Shown here: positions 1,340 to 33,376 of the stretch, piece after piece
Layout of the letters: each line of letters starts with the position of its first letter
Numbering within the stretch: the first letter of the stretch is position 1
Origin: a virus
Reading direction: 5' to 3' (one strand)
IMG/VR virus record: IMGVR_UViG_3300032265_001314
Span: 1 to 64,000 of that record
DNA: 64,000 bases
The notes under the pieces: model-generated
What the model was told of the DNA's origin: nothing
The model's input: the letters and a program-made list of their open reading frames with translations, nothing else
Database searches by the model: none
Position numbers and translations under genes: made by a program

Positions 1340-3295
1340 TTATATCCAGGTAGGACGCTGTATTCCATTTTTAAAATTAGCACCGTCGTCAAATGTGGTG
1401 CCAAACGGATATGGATATTTGTATTTTTGATTAGGTCCAGCAGCTACGTGTACATATCCAACGTCCCCTGAATGTTGGAAAACTAGATAAACAAATGAAT
1501 CTTTGATATATTTTACAGCCCATTGCGCTATCTCATAGTGTTTAGCTGCACTATTCCAACTTAAATCAACTGCTGCACCAAAACAATGATCACTTTTTCC
1601 ATAATCGCTGCCGCCCGGGCCTCTAAATCCGTTTACTACAGTAGCCCTACCAAAATTCTGTTCTAGTGGATCTACTGCATTTGTAGCGATATATTTTAAA
1701 CCGTCCACTATCTGATCAAGTGTAAGACCTAAATGACCTTTAGGTGGCAATTCATATCCGCCTTTGACTCCTTGTTTGGTTAATTGTCCTAGTGTCCTAC
1801 CGTTAGGAGAGATTACTAAACTATAATCTATCTGTCCATTTTTCATTACAGTTCCGCTAGGCGGAGTTTGTGGAGGGTGAGCACCTCCTCGAGGCAAATT
1901 GGTCCTTTGTGACGGTGCCGATTTCCTGCGACTAGTTATATCATTTGGTGGACTAGTGAATGGCCCTGCGTGTGGACTAATGCCCATCGCACTAGGATTA
2001 TATGTGCGAGGAGGTCTTCCGGACGAAAGTAAATTGGAAATATTTCCTGGCAATGCATTAGTTAGTTGGCTAGGAGAAAAAAGATTAGCTGTATCAAAAG
2101 ATGACAATTTTTGTGCTACACCGCTCACAGCTCCAACTACACTACCGCCGAGCGCCGACCTTACTCCACTCGCTCCTCCAGTTAATGACCCTATGCTTAG
2201 ATTAGTCGGAACTATAGATACTCTACTACCGACTACGCTACTCATTAGACTAGATAAGCTACTAAACGCAGAACTGTTAGTAGATCCAAATAAATCAACT
2301 GGTATAGTAGCGTGTGGGGTCGTAGATAGATTAACCATAGATCCAACATTTATATGTGGTACGCTTATTTTAACACTGTTTCCAGTGACAACATTTGTTA
2401 GAGCTGCACCCATCACGTTACTCAATACCATTTGTTTAGTTGTGCCACCAACATTTACAGATCCTAGAGATATTGAACTTACAGTATTTGTTAACGCAGA
2501 TGATGCTGCAGGTATTCCTCTCGAAACAGAGGATAACGCTTGCCCAGCTGCTGATCCTATAGCATTACCAGAAGCTATGTTTAATAGATTGTTTATAGGT
2601 ATAGGTGATTGCTTCAATAGTCCCGGAAGCGATCCAGATGGTAAAAGAGACTTGAATGATCCCGGCAAACTTTTCAGTGCTCCTGGTAATGCCTTGGCAC
2701 CTACTCCGTCCATTAGTCCTTCTAATGTCGATATCTTGCCGCTGGCTTCTCTGGGAATATTATATTGGATAGCTTTTTCAAATGATGAAGATCCTGTCTT
2801 GGAAGGTTTGCCACCGGCATCATTTTCATCTGTGTTGGAACCTTTTTTAGCCTGCTGCATAGCAGCTATAGCAGCCTTCCTAAGATTTGGTTCTGTCATT
2901 CCGGTACCAGCTACTGTTCCAGAGTTACCGCTTGCAGCATTTTTTAAATCAGTAGGTCGAGCTGGAGGTTGTGCGGTATATTTTACTCCAGCTACTTCTA
3001 CGGTCGTGGTTATTCCACGCTTTGCTGCTTCGGCTGTAGCTAACAGTCTAGCTGTAGTAGAGGGATCACTGATCTTTCCTACTTTGGATTCTAATATTTT
3101 TATGTTAGCGTTTGTATCACTAGCATCTTTTGTTGGATAACCCGGAACAGTCATCTGTTTGCCGTTTATAACAGCATTGACAACTACTTCGATATTTGTA
3201 GCATTTGCTAAATCGTTTGCTGCTTTTTGCGCATCTGCTACAGAGTTAAAGGTAGCTTGTGCGGTTGATCGTGAATTGGGGAGTAAACTAACCAT
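1340..3295 (-). CDS. Probable baseplate/tail-associated protein with C-terminal peptidase M15 (Zn) domain
   Basis: C-terminal GFR...SDHCFGAAVDL...VHVA motifs; long Ser/Gly-rich linker; next to the PAAR gene; start placed at the ATG 5 nt after TAAATA. Confidence 0.6.
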   Translation of the reverse strand: MVSLLPNSRSTAQATFNSVADAQKAANDLANATNIEVVVNAVINGKQMTVPGYPTKDASDTNANIKILESKVGKISDPSTTARLLATAEAAKRGITTTVEVAGVKYTAQPPARPTDLKNAASGNSGTVAGTGMTEPNLRKAAIAAMQQAKKGSNTDENDAGGKPSKTGSSSFEKAIQYNIPREASGKISTLEGLMDGVGAKALPGALKSLPGSFKSLLPSGSLPGLLKQSPIPINNLLNIASGNAIGSAAGQALSSVSRGIPAASSALTNTVSSISLGSVNVGGTTKQMVLSNVMGAALTNVVTGNSVKISVPHINVGSMVNLSTTPHATIPVDLFGSTNSSAFSSLSSLMSSVVGSRVSIVPTNLSIGSLTGGASGVRSALGGSVVGAVSGVAQKLSSFDTANLFSPSQLTNALPGNISNLLSSGRPPRTYNPSAMGISPHAGPFTSPPNDITSRRKSAPSQRTNLPRGGAHPPQTPPSGTVMKNGQIDYSLVISPNGRTLGQLTKQGVKGGYELPPKGHLGLTLDQIVDGLKYIATNAVDPLEQNFGRATVVNGFRGPGGSDYGKSDHCFGAAVDLSWNSAAKHYEIAQWAVKYIKDSFVYLVFQHSGDVGYVHVAAGPNQKYKYPYPFGTTFDDGANFKNGIQRPTWI

Positions 3296-3345
3296 ACTCA
3301 TATTTATTAGATGTAGTATATCATAAATACTGACGGAGGAAGATA

Positions 3346-3648
3346 ATGGGACAACTTTGGGCAGTAGTAGGGGATCCTAATTCACACGGTGGGGGAGAAT
3401 TAACATTAAGCGGCGATTCCTCTCCCGGAACAGTCTTTATCAATAATATACCTGTTATAGTAGGTACGACAGATGCAGGACCTGACGGGCTTGCTGATCC
3501 CGATGGACCACCACATGATGATCCAAAAAGCAGTTCACATAGCGCAACTGTGTTTGCTTATAATAAACCTGCACACAGGAATGGCGATACTCGTGTATGC
3601 GGTGCCACTACTGTAGTTGTAAATGAAACTACAGTTTTTGTCGGTTAA
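3346..3648 (+). CDS. PAAR-domain spike tip protein (T4 gp5.4-like)
   Basis: GDPNSHGG, VFINNIPVIVG, KPAHRNGDTRVCGA, TVFVG; TAAATA and GGAGG upstream. Confidence 0.85.
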   Translation: MGQLWAVVGDPNSHGGGELTLSGDSSPGTVFINNIPVIVGTTDAGPDGLADPDGPPHDDPKSSSHSATVFAYNKPAHRNGDTRVCGATTVVVNETTVFVG

Positions 3649-22740: not shown

Positions 22741-23316
22741 TTATTCATCCTCGTCCTCTTCAATGAAATCATCCTCGTCGAAATCTGGGACAGTACTAGG
22801 ATCATCGTAGTATTTGTATAAGGGTTCGTTGGGCATGATCTCACGATACTTGCCTGGCAACATCAATCCTAATACAGTCATGTCTTTGGGACTGAGTATA
22901 TCTGTGACATAGAAAGTGCTACTACATCTACCCGGTATCCTCTTGACTGGACCGTGTCTAACCTTGCCCTTGACGATGTTTGCGAAAGCATTACCAACTT
23001 CCCAGTTGAGCTGGATACGTGTAATACCTTTCTCCTTGTTGCGGAGCCGTGTGATATCGTGTTCTGTCAATACACAGATATTCGCACAGTTATCCTCATC
23101 AATCGTCACGAGACAATCTTTGAATTTAAGTGCGCCTTTGGTCCTTACATTATCGGGAGTTTCTTTTGTCGTCCAAGGTATGTTAGCATCAACATGCTCA
23201 ACATAATAGGTTTCACCCTTGGCCATCACTATCCACATTGGGACGGTGGAATCTTCTAAATGCTTTTTATTAAAGTGGAATACTGCTTCTTTACATACTA
23301 ATTCAATCTAGGCCAT
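22741..23316 (-). CDS. Hypothetical protein with in-frame amber codon at codon 3 (MA*IELVCKEAVFHFNKKHLED...)
   Basis: AAGGAGA SD, then ATG(23316) GCC TAG(23310-23308), then an open frame continuous with ORF 22741..23238 (576 nt = 192 codons). Confidence 0.75.
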
Positions 23317-23320
23317 AATA

Positions 23321-23345
23321 ATTTCTCCTTTGTTAGATGTTTATG
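23321..23345 (-). repeat. 25-bp promoter/RBS direct repeat, copy A
   Basis: CATAAACATCTAACAAAGGAGAAAT; 24/25 identical to 24053-24077. Confidence 0.85.
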
Positions 23346-23356
23346 GTTTAAAAATT

Positions 23357-24049
23357 CTATTTCTTTTCGCCTAATAGTTGTAGAAGATTAATAAAGATAT
23401 TAATAAAGTCTAGGTAAAGATTGAGGGCACCAACTACTCCGGCTTTTTCGCGCTCTTCACCATACGAATTATAATAAGTCTCTTTAATAGTCTGCATATC
23501 ATATGCAGTTAGTAGCGTAAATATTAACACACCAATAGCACTAATAGCAAGTGTCATGATACTGCTCTGTAGGAAAATGTTTACTATACCAGCAATCATC
23601 AACCCAATCAACCCCATCATTAAGAATGACCCCATACTACTTAGATCACGCTTAGTAGTATATCCCCATAATGCCATGCTACCAAAAGTAGCAGCACTGA
23701 TAAAGAACACCTGGAAGATACTGCCTAACTTAAAGATTAGAAAGATACTGCTTAGGCTTAATCCCATAGCTGCGGCAAATACCCAGAGGAACATCTTAGC
23801 TGCTGACGAATCGATCTTATCGATAACAAAAGCAAAGATTAGAGATAATCCCAACGGAGCAAAAACTGCTATCCACTTGAGAGGGCTTCCCCAAATATAC
23901 TGGGCTAACTCAGGCGATAACCCAATCCAAGCACTAACAATACCGCTAATAACCAAAGCGATAGACATATTGCTAAACACACCTAATAGATAGTTCCTAA
24001 GGCCCATATCATATTGTTGTTCGTGTGTATTATAAGCATATGTTTCCAT
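23357..24049 (-). CDS. Bax inhibitor-1/YccA family membrane protein
   Basis: About 7 TM helices; GYTTKRDLS, LTAYDMQTIK, GALNLYLDFINIF; ends in TAG. Confidence 0.93.
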   Translation of the reverse strand: METYAYNTHEQQYDMGLRNYLLGVFSNMSIALVISGIVSAWIGLSPELAQYIWGSPLKWIAVFAPLGLSLIFAFVIDKIDSSAAKMFLWVFAAAMGLSLSSIFLIFKLGSIFQVFFISAATFGSMALWGYTTKRDLSSMGSFLMMGLIGLMIAGIVNIFLQSSIMTLAISAIGVLIFTLLTAYDMQTIKETYYNSYGEEREKAGVVGALNLYLDFINIFINLLQLLGEKK

Positions 24050-24052
24050 TAG

Positions 24053-24077
24053 ATTTCTCCTTTGTTAGATATTTATG
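24053..24077 (-). repeat. 25-bp promoter/RBS direct repeat, copy B
   Basis: CATAAATATCTAACAAAGGAGAAAT (TAAATA plus SD). Confidence 0.85.
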
Positions 24078-24178
24078 AAGGTTCCCCAGTCCAGGTACAG
24101 GTTTACCTACAACCCCTCTAACATCTTAAGCAAAGGGCTCCGTTTATTAGACTGCCGAGTAGTTCCCCTTGCCAATAG

Positions 24179-24250
24179 TGGCGCTCTGTATGGGAGTTGA
24201 ACCCATCCTTGCAGTTTTAGAATCTGCTAGCTCTCCGCGAGCAACAAAGC
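24179..24250 (-). tRNA. Atypical tRNA with CUA anticodon (amber suppressor-like)
   Basis: GCTTTGT T GCTC-GCGGA-GAGC T AGCAGA-TTCTAAA-ACTGCA AGG ATGGG-TTCAACT-CCCAT ACAGAGC G CCA; 72 nt with encoded CCA. Confidence 0.8.
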
Positions 24251-24308: not shown

Positions 24309-24863
24309 TTATAGTGTAGCACCACCTAGAGGGCGATTGCAACCACAAAGTTCACCAGTACCTAGAGCATCTAATACACGTAGAGTCTCTTCTGGACTGC
24401 GGCCTACGTTTAGATCATTTACTGTGACGTGCTGGATAACATTATCTGGATCTACGATAAAAGTAGCTCGCAGACAAGCACCGCTATCTTGATGGAAGAT
24501 ACCAAGCTGTCCCACTAGCCCGCGTTCATCACGTAGTGTATCTGCAAACATCCAGCTGTTGGTCTTTTTTAGATCTTCGTGATTATTGCGCCAAGCTAAC
24601 TTTACATATTCATTATCTGTATTACCGATCAGCAACTTAGCATTGCGATCTTCAAACTGTTCTACCAACGCATCGTATGCTACAATCTCAGTAGGACATA
24701 CGAATGTAAAATCCTTGGGATAAAAAACGATAACCTTCCACCAACCTGCGAAACTGTTCTCGTCAATCATTTCAAACGCACCTGGCGGCTCATCATCATT
24801 TAGCACACCTGGACGTACTCCGGTAACCATAAATGGGGTAATCTTATCGCCTACTGTCTTCAC
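24309..24863 (-). CDS. ahpC: Peroxiredoxin (AhpC family)
   Basis: FYPKDFTFVCPTE, RATFIVDP, VGRSPEETLRVLDAL, GELCGCN. Confidence 0.95.
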   Translation of the reverse strand: MKTVGDKITPFMVTGVRPGVLNDDEPPGAFEMIDENSFAGWWKVIVFYPKDFTFVCPTEIVAYDALVEQFEDRNAKLLIGNTDNEYVKLAWRNNHEDLKKTNSWMFADTLRDERGLVGQLGIFHQDSGACLRATFIVDPDNVIQHVTVNDLNVGRSPEETLRVLDALGTGELCGCNRPLGGATL

Positions 24864-26746: not shown

Positions 26747-27631
26747 TCACCCATTCAGTTTGAATTTAACATAATCTATTATAGCACCTGCGATATCTAT
26801 ATTGCAATATTTTTCAAATCCCTCGAAACCAGGTGCGCTATTAGCTTCACACACTTTAAAACCTTCTTGATCAAAAAGCAAGTCTATTCCTGCGATATCT
26901 AATCCTAGGCATTTTGCAGTCTCTCTGCAGAGTAAATCTAACTCATTAGTAATTTCAAATGATTCACCCGTACCGCCTCCTGTTATGTTAGCACGGAAGT
27001 CGCCCGGAGGACCAGTACGTTTCATAACACCTATAGTCTTGCCACCAACTACCCATACACGTAGATCAGTTCCAACTGCGGTATTGATAAACTCCTGCAC
27101 AATCATAGTTTTCTTGACGCCGAGATTATCTATGAGTTCCATAAGGTCCTCAAACAATTCTTTAGTTTGGCAGAGATGTACGCCTTTACCGTAACTGCCC
27201 TGTAATACTTTGACTACACATGGAAATCCTATTTCTTTTGCTACTAGGTCGCTAGAAACAGGAAACTTAACCAACATAGTTTTTGGCGTAGGTATATTGT
27301 TTTGTGCTAATATCTGGTGTGCTAAGAGCTTATCACCTACATTAGTGATAGCTTCGCTATTATTGATAGTAGGTACTGAAAACTTTTCTAGCTGTCGCAT
27401 AACAGCAGATCGAAAATAATTAGTACCAGACCCTACTCTAGTTAGCACCAACTTAGGCATGCTGATACTATCGCCTTTGTATCTAATGCTTTTAGTCCTG
27501 CTGCGGTTGACTATGATATCAAACTCATCAGGATGCATCAATCTTGCATCGATAGAATTGTTAGAGAATGTCTCTAACAACCTACGATTCTCATAGCTAT
27601 CGTTATGCTGGCTTAGTATCCAAACACTCAT
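26747..27631 (-). CDS. rimK: RimK-family ATP-grasp ligase
   Basis: GFPCVVK, GSYGKGV, QEFI, DLRVWVVGG, FRANITGGG, AGIDLL, EANSAPGF. Confidence 0.9.
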   Translation of the reverse strand: MSVWILSQHNDSYENRRLLETFSNNSIDARLMHPDEFDIIVNRSRTKSIRYKGDSISMPKLVLTRVGSGTNYFRSAVMRQLEKFSVPTINNSEAITNVGDKLLAHQILAQNNIPTPKTMLVKFPVSSDLVAKEIGFPCVVKVLQGSYGKGVHLCQTKELFEDLMELIDNLGVKKTMIVQEFINTAVGTDLRVWVVGGKTIGVMKRTGPPGDFRANITGGGTGESFEITNELDLLCRETAKCLGLDIAGIDLLFDQEGFKVCEANSAPGFEGFEKYCNIDIAGAIIDYVKFKLNG

Positions 27632-31692: not shown

Positions 31693-31816
31693 TTTTGAAA
31701 ATATATACGATATATGGATGTTTGGATATAGGTTACCTATAGACGCTGCTATTTTTCTCGGAACTATGTTTGCTTTGCTCTGCGTAGCAGCTGTCTGCCA
31801 ATCATTTAAGTTATAA
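31682..31816 (+). CDS. 44-aa single-TM peptide (not in ORF track)
   Basis: MISNFENIYDIWMFGYRLPIDAAIFLGTMFALLCVAAVCQSFKL. Confidence 0.4.
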   Translation: MISNFENIYDIWMFGYRLPIDAAIFLGTMFALLCVAAVCQSFKL

Positions 31817-32374
31817 TTTTAAGAAGTTTTTTACTGCTGCTACTGTGGCATCGCTTTGCAGTATCTCATAATGGTTAGCAGCTATCTCCGCAACATTACC
31901 GCAAGTCCATCCTGTCTGTACTTTAATAGGCAATACTCCGTCGTTGCTTTCATATATAAAAGGATTAAATCCTTTATTAGCTATTAAATGTAGAACAGGT
32001 AAGTGATCATAACGCATTTCGTGTATCTCTTGGACTTGCCTGCTGCTATTCGCTATCTTGCCTATGAGACTTGCTCTGCTCATATAGAGCTGTATAAGAT
32101 TTAGATCCAGACCAGCTAATGGGCTAGCGAGAGTTATAATACCTTTACATAATGTGTCTTGGCTCATATGTAAAGCGATCATACCACCCAGGCTATGTCC
32201 AATAGCAACATATGGTTCACGCATCACACCTATGCTCATAGCTAGGATATCTTCGTAAGCATTAACACGATGATCGTAATCAACGCAATGCCAATCTTTG
32301 ATTTTGGTCTTGTGCTTTAGATAGTTAAAACTGATGCTACTGCTCCAAGCACCGTGGATACCGAGTATCTTCAT
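31811..32374 (-). CDS. Alpha/beta hydrolase (lipase/esterase-like)
   Basis: IHGAW, GHSLGG nucleophile elbow, NDGVL, NHYEIL. Confidence 0.88.
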   Translation of the reverse strand: MKILGIHGAWSSSISFNYLKHKTKIKDWHCVDYDHRVNAYEDILAMSIGVMREPYVAIGHSLGGMIALHMSQDTLCKGIITLASPLAGLDLNLIQLYMSRASLIGKIANSSRQVQEIHEMRYDHLPVLHLIANKGFNPFIYESNDGVLPIKVQTGWTCGNVAEIAANHYEILQSDATVAAVKNFLKL

Positions 32375-32377
32375 AAC

Positions 32378-33376
32378 CTATTTAATCTCCGTTAAGTTGT
32401 CTAGGAATGTCTTAGTACATATAGCCCAATCATATTTTTTACTGCTTGCTTCAACAATGGCACGATCACATTCCAGAGCATATGCTATAGCTACTTCTAA
32501 ATCATCATCCATATAACCATTGATTCCGTTCTCTACTACATCGACAGGTCCAGTGACTGGATAAGCTGCTATAGGAGTACCACAAGCTATAGATTCTAAC
32601 ATAACCACACCAAATGTATCGCTCTTGCTTGGAAAAACAAACACATCAGAATTAGCATAATATTCTGCTAGTTCTTTACCTTTCTTATATCCTGCATAGT
32701 TTACATAAGGGTACTTTTGCTTCAATTCATCTAGGTAAGGACCATCCCCGACCAGTATCTTAGTTCCCTCTATCTTTACGCTACAGAACTCGTCTAATCC
32801 TTTTTCTTTGCTAGCACGACTAACACAAAGTATTATAGGTCTTTTTACTTCTAACTTTTCTCTTAACTTACTAGTAAATAGATCTCCGTCAACTCCTCTA
32901 TTCCAAACTTCTAACCTTTGGAAGTCTCGATTGCTAAGTTCTGTTTTCATAGTGTTTGTAGTTACTAATACTTTTGTTGAAAACTTATGGAACCATCGGA
33001 CTAACCAGTAGCCCCAATCAACTGGCAACTTAAAATAGGTGTTTAGATATTCCGGAAACTTAGTATGATAGCTGGTGTTGTGTGGTATGCTACGTTTGTC
33101 TACTTTACAATACCAACGTGCAGCTAATCCTAATGTACCTTCGGTGGCTATATGTATAGCATCAGGTTTAAAGTTTTCTATCATAGGACCAACACGCCAT
33201 ATGTCTAAACTAAGCCTAACTTCAGGATAGCCTGGAGCACCTATGGTTTTAAATTGACTAGGTTCGATCACCTGTACAATGTGTCCCCAAGACTCTAACT
33301 GTTTAACTGTGGCTCTTAGTGTAGTGACCACACCATTTATATTAGCCCAAGTATCAGTTACTAGCGTTATCCTCAT
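32378..33376 (-). CDS. GT4 glycosyltransferase (Agt/MgtA-like glycolipid synthase)
   Basis: VTDTW..INGVVTTL, IHIATEGTLG, YHTKFPEY, FPSKSDTFGVVMLESIACGTP; ends in TAG. Confidence 0.88.
   Translation of the reverse strand: MRITLVTDTWANINGVVTTLRATVKQLESWGHIVQVIEPSQFKTIGAPGYPEVRLSLDIWRVGPMIENFKPDAIHIATEGTLGLAARWYCKVDKRSIPHNTSYHTKFPEYLNTYFKLPVDWGYWLVRWFHKFSTKVLVTTNTMKTELSNRDFQRLEVWNRGVDGDLFTSKLREKLEVKRPIILCVSRASKEKGLDEFCSVKIEGTKILVGDGPYLDELKQKYPYVNYAGYKKGKELAEYYANSDVFVFPSKSDTFGVVMLESIACGTPIAAYPVTGPVDVVENGINGYMDDDLEVAIAYALECDRAIVEASSKKYDWAICTKTFLDNLTEIK

Follow-up and report, generated by a model that had tools for sequence, protein, structure and literature searches.

In the window analysed here (64,000 nucleotides of viral DNA, positions 1 to 64,000 of the 91,271-bp IMG/VR virus record IMGVR_UViG_3300032265_001314), the minus-strand gene at 22741-23316 carries an in-frame amber codon, TAG, as its third codon, and it is probable that its protein is made only when a tRNA with the anticodon CUA, encoded by the same phage, overrides the resulting UAG. 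A Shine-Dalgarno (SD) sequence precedes ATG GCC TAG (Table 1), after which ATT GAA TTA GTA TGT continues in frame into the listed open reading frame (ORF) 22741..23238, and the frame stays open for 188 codons after the TAG, to a TAA at 22743-22741. A preliminary description of this DNA had reported the same arrangement, and our reading of the minus strand at 23330-23308 agrees with it, as it does with the statement that the ATG at 23238, at which the ORF list begins the gene, has no SD sequence before it. That methionine sits 23 codons past the start of the conserved N-terminal domain of the protein. The same description had placed the CUA-anticodon tRNA about 860 bp upstream on the same strand; the distance from the tRNA to the ATG proved to be 863 nt. 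The invariance of the TAG, the in-frame start before it, the coding constraint after it and the linked tRNA with the matching anticodon are all observed in the DNA, and from these four together we infer that the tRNA decodes the UAG. Below, the in-frame TAG is called the gate, and homologues that carry it are called gated.

Relatives of the gene were collected by a combined pattern and tblastn scan of IMG/VR, which yielded 379; the best 80 loci were examined in detail, and collapsing identical sequences left 103 distinct proteins. The first in-frame stop codon upstream of the conserved domain is TAG in 78 of the 80 best loci, the other two starting at ATG, and among the distinct IMG/VR homologues 101 of 103 are gated and two are ungated, far more than chance would give. 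In all gated homologues the TAG lies 1-9 codons after an in-frame SD-ATG, with a leader of two codons in 89 of 102 homologues. None of them has TAA or TGA at the gate, yet these two codons end 88 of 102 ordinary ORFs of the source record, and a pattern that allowed either CAG or TAG at this position matched 85 DNA stretches, every one of them with TAG (CAG, 0/85). The family is nearly absent from cells: only six short contigs from metagenome-assembled genomes (MAGs), four of them with TAG at the gate, were found among 185,579 prokaryotic species genomes, so that the family is, as judged from its distribution, essentially a phage family.

The DNA around the gate shows the same constraint in another form. 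Nucleotide diversity was calculated for each codon position (first/second/third) in an unbiased set of 55 distinct DNA versions. Diversity in the flanking DNA is saturated (0.65/0.44/0.55 in the leader codon immediately before the TAG, and a mean of 0.57 in the region upstream of the TAG), and in the TAG itself it is zero (0/0/0). The pattern in codons 1-9 after the TAG (0.15/0.15/0.44) resembles that in codons 10-24 (0.145/0.057/0.469), indicating that the codons directly after the gate evolve as coding sequence. In the aligned proteins, numbered from the residue after the TAG, E2 and C5 are at least 90% conserved and V9, F10, H11, F12, N13 and K14 are invariant. The possibility that homologues begin at the downstream methionine, which the preliminary description had named as evidence against read-through, is thus contradicted by conserved coding sequence between the TAG and that methionine.

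These observations bear on the simplest alternative, which is that the TAG is a sequencing error, a recent nonsense mutation or a sign of a decaying pseudogene, and that the true start is the downstream methionine. Gene callers do start proteins of this family at Met-24 or Met-28, as this explanation would have it. It is nevertheless scarcely credible, as the TAG is conserved in more than 100 independent assemblies and in a cultured phage, coding constraint extends upstream of the downstream methionine, and that methionine lacks an SD sequence. The suggestion in the preliminary description that a CAG or AAG codon had mutated to TAG, or had been misread, is refuted by the 85 of 85 pattern matches with TAG and by the more than 100 diverged homologues that share it.

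A second alternative is that ATG-NNN-TAG is a leader mini-ORF of the lambda bar minigene type, after which ribosomes re-initiate without any suppressor, the linkage to the tRNA being unrelated. An SD sequence, an ATG, one codon and a stop are indeed the form of a minigene, the commonest codon after the TAG, ATT, is a weak near-cognate start, and some gated loci show no CUA tRNA. Re-initiation would not require TAG, however, and the stop is always TAG and never TAA or TGA; likewise ATG and downstream ORF share one frame in every case despite leaders of 1-9 codons, which is not what is expected if downstream translation is independent of frame and of the identity of the stop. No ATG, GTG or TTG occurs between the TAG and the conserved stretch in the examined loci, and the codon after the TAG, although mostly ATT, is otherwise GTA, ATC, AAA, ATA or AAC; GTA, AAA and AAC, found in some lineages, are not start codons, so restart after the stop is no general solution. 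Together with the tight linkage of the CUA tRNA, these points make re-initiation improbable. The base after the TAG is a purine in all 102 homologues (A in 97, G in 5), and ATT directly after the TAG (46/55) and GAA as the next codon (53/55) exceed their background usage of 45% and 74%, respectively, which hints at a context effect.

The gate is also present in cultured phage DNA. A tblastn search with the protein encoded after the TAG matched four phage records, representing three distinct cultured phages, in alignments that begin at residue 5, upstream of the methionine in the ORF list. The homologue in RHph_I1_18, a T4-like Rhizobium phage, has no annotation and reads ATG AGT GAG TTC ATG TAG AAC GAA TCG TGC, and a tRNA(CUA) begins 12 nt past the stop codon of this gene. 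A scan of 170,000 of the 170,978 bp of this genome found one CUA tRNA and no second convincing gated ORF, so the tRNA appears to serve essentially one gene there, and a role in regulation or sensing is accordingly more likely than one in general decoding. Numerous database entries for the family begin M-A-Q-I-E-L or M-S-Q-I-E-L, the Q falling precisely on the TAG position (for example P0002-P0004, P0010-P0012 and P0024), and others begin at an internal Met or Val and are truncated. Since no CAG was found in the DNA, the Q is most likely an artefact of gene calling with code 15 on short contigs. On the two points for which the preliminary description had proposed a comparison, the codon carried by homologues and the co-occurrence of TAG with a CUA tRNA, the outcome is TAG in 101 of 103 and a CUA tRNA in at least 68 of 80 loci.

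The latter count combines two kinds of evidence. Of the 80 best loci, 60 have a CUA tRNA that ARAGORN places on the strand of the gene and no more than 3 kb upstream; of the 62 pattern-found loci whose upstream flank extends to 3 kb or more, 53 have one, and about 45 loci contain no other tRNA. Eight further loci contain suppressor homologues that ARAGORN missed or mis-registered. Obvious CUA tRNAs of compact or weak-stemmed form lie directly upstream of the gene in L018, L022, L024/L025 and L065, and in L031, L047 and L059 a gate-abutting “tRNA-Arg(tct)” is 80% identical to a bona fide CUA tRNA and has the loop TTCTAAC in the homologous register. With these misses and the mis-registered clade included, at least 68 of the 80 loci carry a suppressor tRNA, and three of the remaining loci have less than 110 nt of upstream flank. 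In several loci the CCA end of the tRNA is 4-30 nt from the SD sequence of the gated gene, implying that tRNA and mRNA derive from one transcript there. These comparisons strongly support the earlier proposal that the protein depends on the phage suppressor tRNA.

The tRNA of the source phage belongs to a compact lineage. It has a 7-bp acceptor stem, a single nucleotide before a 4-bp D stem, a 5-nt D loop, a 4-bp anticodon stem closed by an A.A mismatch, a short variable loop, a normal T arm, G73 and an encoded CCA, and compensatory changes occur in 6 of 20 pairs of the cloverleaf of this lineage (five relatives). Its score against Rfam RF00005 is 32.2 bits, above the cut-off of 29, so it is a member of the family. 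The 46 distinct CUA tRNAs of relatives are mostly ordinary cloverleaves of 74-77 nt, with G1-C2-G3 paired with C70-G71-C72, A73 or G73, an encoded CCA and the loop YU-CUA-AA. A comparison with 205 other phage tRNAs gave scattered nearest isotypes (Leu, Trp, Arg, Met and others). CUA tRNAs are commonly charged by GlnRS or LysRS, making Gln or Lys the usual residue.

The form of the compact tRNA brings up the idea that it delivers to position 3 some amino acid outside the standard set, perhaps one like pyrrolysine, a special residue of the kind that the preliminary description had mentioned. ARAGORN labels the source tRNA “Pyl”, and the lineage has Pyl-like dimensions in its single nucleotide before the D stem, 5-nt D loop, short variable loop, G1-C72 pair and G73. 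Most relatives, however, have ordinary CUA tRNAs of 74-77 nt with A73, a GG-containing D loop and a TTC T loop; PylS (TIGR02367) had no match in the 91-kb fragment (~27% of the phage); and the position lies in a leader of variable length ahead of a folded domain, where ungated homologues have Met. The idea finds no support in these comparisons, and we regard it as very improbable.

If the phage tRNA does open the gate, ribosomes would start at the SD-ATG, add alanine and reach UAG as the third codon. Action of release factor 1 (RF1) or drop-off of the dipeptidyl-tRNA would then leave no useful product; once a host synthetase has charged the expressed and processed phage tRNA(CUA), an amino acid would be inserted and the 190-residue protein would be made, so that the output of gated protein would depend on how active the phage suppressor tRNA is. 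In what we take to be the ancestral cassette, the tRNA would lie directly upstream of the gate on the same transcript. With the gate at codon 3, aborted attempts would cost only a dipeptide, and the position may favour the tRNA over RF1, as termination on very short chains competes with drop-off. Work on minigenes shows release factors and peptidyl-tRNA drop-off to be in competition when an ORF is very short, most extremely so in the shortest ones (PMC2490762).

The gate is found in a genome that otherwise uses the standard stop codons. CheckV estimates the 91,271-bp record to be ~27% complete, which makes it a fragment of a very large phage; Gp23 is present among the neighbouring genes of related loci, and the source phage is very large and T4-like. 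Throughout the record ORFs are dense under code 11, mostly on the minus strand, and 102 non-overlapping ORFs of at least 100 amino acids end in TAA (52), TGA (36) or TAG (14). Phages that read TAG as an amino acid genome-wide have many TAG-interrupted genes, have abandoned TAG as a terminator and encode a Sup-tRNA(CUA); only the third feature is present here, since there is one convincing SD-ATG-x-TAG gene in 91 kb and TAG is retained as a stop. Genome-wide recoding of the source phage is ruled out by the dense code 11 ORFs and the retained TAG stops, and the preliminary statement to this effect holds for the whole 91-kb record. We scanned both strands of the record for an SD-ATG followed within 11 codons by a stop and then by at least 80 open codons, a search that the preliminary description had proposed, and the site at 23308-23310 was the sole clear case; the other matches resembled chance and included all three stops.

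Two further arrangements involving TAG were noted in the course of this work. At 3301-3410 on the minus strand, a second SD-like ATG is followed by nine codons and a TAG upstream of a 653-amino-acid ORF (1340-3301), the first start codon of which is 26 codons after that TAG; this is probably chance. At 31811-33376 on the minus strand, a GT4 glycosyltransferase gene (32378-33376) ends AAA TAG GTT ATG, and an alpha/beta hydrolase gene (31811-32374) follows in the same frame, such that amber suppression would fuse the two; the match of frames may be chance, since one in three adjacencies is in frame.

Several observations weigh against decoding of the gate by the phage tRNA. TAG is still an ordinary terminator in the source phage, and the 14 ORFs that end in it include the gene just upstream of the gate, so an efficient suppressor should carry a cost; the next in-frame stop after a terminal TAG is at a median of 6.5 codons, no closer than after TAA or TGA. 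The tRNA of the source phage is atypical and barely above the Rfam threshold, and about 10-15% of loci with good flanks have no nearby CUA tRNA. Moreover, four ungated homologues, two in IMG/VR (L023 and L077) and two on MAG contigs, start directly at ATG without a TAG, and three of the four (L023, L077 and L173) still have a CUA tRNA upstream, indicating that the tRNA is not kept for the gate codon alone.

The last two observations would be accommodated if UAG were read by host means, whether through a codon-3 context in which RF1 is weak or through a suppressor of the host, and the phage tRNA(CUA) had another main job, on host genes, other phage genes or in counter-defence, its neighbourhood with the gated gene reflecting shared regulation and no lock and key. 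The competition between termination and drop-off on very short ORFs (PMC2490762) is also in keeping with this. The anticodon, however, matches exactly the single conserved stop codon, the tRNA often abuts the ribosome-binding site of the gene and is the only tRNA in about 45 loci, and no other gated target was found in the 170,000 bp scanned of the RHph_I1_18 genome. We therefore give little credence to reading of the gate by host means and favour its decoding by the phage tRNA.

Table 1. Positions in the window of the gated gene, its tRNA and the DNA between them
Feature	Position	Strand	Basis or remark
tRNA(CUA), amber suppressor type	24179..24250	-	ARAGORN, 72 nt; Rfam RF00005
Spacer after the tRNA, with predicted hairpin GCAAGGGG...CCCTTTGC	24078..24178	-	Alignment; consensus fold
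21-nt leader copy 1, CATAAATATCTAACAAAGGAG, with late-promoter-like ATAAATA and SD	24057..24077	-	Precedes the Bax1-I gene; motif search
Bax1-I / YccA-like membrane protein gene	23357..24049	-	Pfam PF01027, E 1.8e-56; passenger between tRNA and gate
21-nt leader copy 2, CATAAACATCTAACAAAGGAG, including SD AAGGAG	23325..23345	-	Precedes the gate
SD AAGGAG	23330-23325	-	8-nt spacer aaattatt to the ATG
ATG and single leader codon GCC (Met-Ala)	23311..23316	-	Sequence; ATG = 23316-23314
In-frame TAG, codon 3 (gate)	23308..23310	-	Sequence; 101/103 distinct homologues
N-terminal conserved domain, residues 1-80 after the TAG	23068..23307	-	Alignments; AlphaFold2, pLDDT 95
C-terminal alpha/beta domain, residues 82-171	22795..23064	-	AlphaFold2 full model, pLDDT 88
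Acidic low-confidence tail ..DFDEDDFIEEDEDE and TAA stop	22741..22794	-	Sequence; AlphaFold2 model

The distance between tRNA and gate in the source phage appears to have a simple explanation. In the closest relatives, L014 and L017, the spacer between tRNA and gate can be aligned with the 130 nt that follow the tRNA in the source phage (~85% conserved over 24078-24178). In those two loci the spacer runs straight into ATG GCC TAG ATT GAA, whereas in the source phage it runs into the start of the Bax1-I gene. In addition, the 91 kb contain just two copies of a 21-nt leader, CATAAAYATCTAACAAAGGAG: one precedes Bax1-I and the other the gated gene. This break in synteny and the duplicated leader indicate that the Bax1-I gene, which terminates in TAG with a TAA two codons further, was probably inserted into a cassette that ancestrally consisted of tRNA, spacer and gate, which would account for the 863 nt. 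The hairpin predicted in the spacer is followed by T-rich sequence and could be a processing or attenuation signal; the consensus fold of relatives gave no covariation support for it. The ATAAATA of the leader resembles the T4 late-promoter box, and a similar element lies upstream of the gate in 26 of 60 relatives compared with about 9 expected, making it a putative promoter.

The gated protein consists of two predicted domains and a tail that is modelled as disordered. The beta-rich N-terminal domain, with the motifs FHFNKKH, PMW, TKETP and TKG, begins directly after the TAG, and the residues next to the TAG form its first strand in the AlphaFold model (predicted local distance difference test score, pLDDT, 95). 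In VIA-align its best match, among oligonucleotide-binding (OB)-like entries, had a Z score of 3.7 (root-mean-square deviation, rmsd, 3.4; 63 residues aligned), with no convincing neighbour; Foldseek found nothing for it in PDB, and its BFVD matches were all uncharacterised phage proteins. The C-terminal domain has a common arrangement, and its best VIA-align match was RNA recognition motif (RRM)/ferredoxin-like and weak (Z 5.7, rmsd 5.1, 89 residues aligned); another match, with Z 5.6, was the tRNA-binding tail of a CCA-adding enzyme. For the whole protein we found no Pfam or PHROG family, no sequence match in a profile search of PDB beyond chance WW-like entries, and no ESM Atlas match at 0.9 or above. 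When 1.84 billion representative proteins were searched with a profile, 147 members in three architectures were recovered, with no informative domain fusion among them: the two-domain form seen here, the N-terminal domain alone, as in RHph_I1_18, and the domain at the C-terminus of a protein, as in Agrobacterium phage Atu_ph07 and Sinorhizobium phage Phosso.

The neighbourhood of the gene offers some indications of its role. The N-domain homologue of Phosso is two genes from an annotated peptidyl-tRNA hydrolase, and neither PTH2 (PF01981) nor an RF-1 domain was matched in the 91-kb fragment (~27% of the phage). The source phage encodes a permuted transfer-messenger RNA (tmRNA) at 939-1335 on the minus strand, with the tag ANDNVATYEMALAA. 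Of 103 distinct loci, 18 have a permuted tmRNA near the gated gene and invariably on its strand (for example L044, L046, L075, L092, L136, L151 and L158), in six cases directly after or overlapping the end of the gated gene; in RHph_I1_18 one lies 4.4 kb from the gate. A link between tmRNA and suppression, by rescue of read-through ribosomes, is only a thought. Given the RRM-like second domain and the tRNA and tmRNA in the neighbourhood, our best guess is an RNA- or translation-related role. Other conserved neighbours, an AhpC/TSA peroxiredoxin (27 of 104 loci, including the source phage, 24309-24863, minus strand), a CMD/AhpD-like protein (19 loci), a zinc-ribbon protein and Gp23, are a matter of synteny only and give no functional clue. 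Cys5 of the gated protein is nearly invariant and Cys128 is invariant, and a redox link with the recurrent AhpC and CMD neighbours is conceivable. Separately, a RimK-like ATP-grasp gene (PF08443, E 3e-46) lies at 26747-27631 on the minus strand, 3.4 kb upstream of the gated gene; this family adds glutamates to the C-terminus of ribosomal protein S6, and the gated protein ends in an Asp/Glu run.

Dependence of a gene on an early stop codon has well-known precedents. The prfB gene, encoding release factor 2 (RF2), has an early in-frame UGA that is bypassed by +1 frameshifting, the stop being one that RF2 itself recognises. As in prfB, the early in-frame stop described here would make the yield of protein report the balance between termination and alternative decoding; unlike prfB, the alternative event would be suppression by a dedicated tRNA. 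In selenocysteine and pyrrolysine decoding, and in laboratory amber mutants with suppressors of the supE or supF type, a stop within a gene is decoded by a dedicated tRNA on which expression depends; the gated gene would likewise be expressed only in the presence of a stop-reading tRNA. In contrast to selenocysteine and pyrrolysine decoding, there is no requirement resembling a selenocysteine or pyrrolysine insertion sequence (SECIS or PYLIS) and no dedicated synthetase was found, and, unlike the laboratory mutants, the gate is natural and under purifying selection. The gated gene shares SD-ATG-one codon-stop with lambda bar and other two-codon minigenes (PMC2490762); here, however, a conserved protein is encoded in the same frame beyond the stop, which is invariably UAG, and a matching tRNA is adjacent.

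Closer parallels exist among phages. Recoded phages in which TAG encodes Gln (code 15; crAss-like, Lak and others) carry suppressor tRNAs, and their recoding has been proposed to act as a regulatory switch (10.1101/2021.08.26.457843, PMC9523058). As in those phages, a phage tRNA(CUA) is proposed here to allow an in-frame TAG to be translated in a standard-code host, and the amber gate would in this respect be an extension of suppressor-tRNA-dependent decoding already known in phages. Code 15 phages, however, have tens of structural and lysis genes with many in-frame TAGs and have lost TAG as a stop, while the source phage has one gene with one TAG near codon 3 and ends about 14% of its long ORFs with TAG. 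The standard-code phages XacN1 (PMC5852040), RsoM2USA (PMC8504454) and Summit (PMC9022506) carry a CUA tRNA that the host lacks; in all three reports extensions after terminal TAGs were sought and no target genes were identified. The candidate target described here differs in lying at the 5' end of a gene, and none of the three phages has a homologue of it (tblastn, E<=1e-3). No publication describing an amber gate at codon 3 of a single gene, together with a phage tRNA that matches it, was found in a search of the literature.

A more far-reaching version of decoding by the phage tRNA is that tRNA and gate together form a self-contained sensor or feedback device that measures and sets UAG read-through in the infected cell. 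The gated protein would then feed back on its suppressor tRNA, on the tmRNA of the phage or on the machinery of termination, and slow action of release factors on dipeptidyl-tRNA at codon 3 would allow a weak suppressor to open the gate and leave ordinary stops unchanged. We consider this rather unlikely at present; if it were correct, the orphan suppressor tRNAs of large standard-code phages would gain a function.

Large phages that use the standard code often carry such orphan tRNAs, which had no reported targets, as in XacN1 and Summit, and a probable target has been found here that gene callers and searches for 3' extensions had missed owing to its position at codon 3. For annotation it matters that the publicly available sequences of this protein family are either truncated or have a Q introduced by code 15 gene calls; censuses of phage suppressor tRNAs that use ARAGORN alone will undercount them. 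Purifying selection keeps the gate in more than 100 diverged phages, one of them cultured. If suppression is indeed how it is opened, one codon and one tRNA would constitute a natural, minimal and gene-specific lock and key, with a bearing on how a genome in which TAG is still a stop can tolerate a suppressor, and on how recoding in phages may have started, with one gated gene before many.

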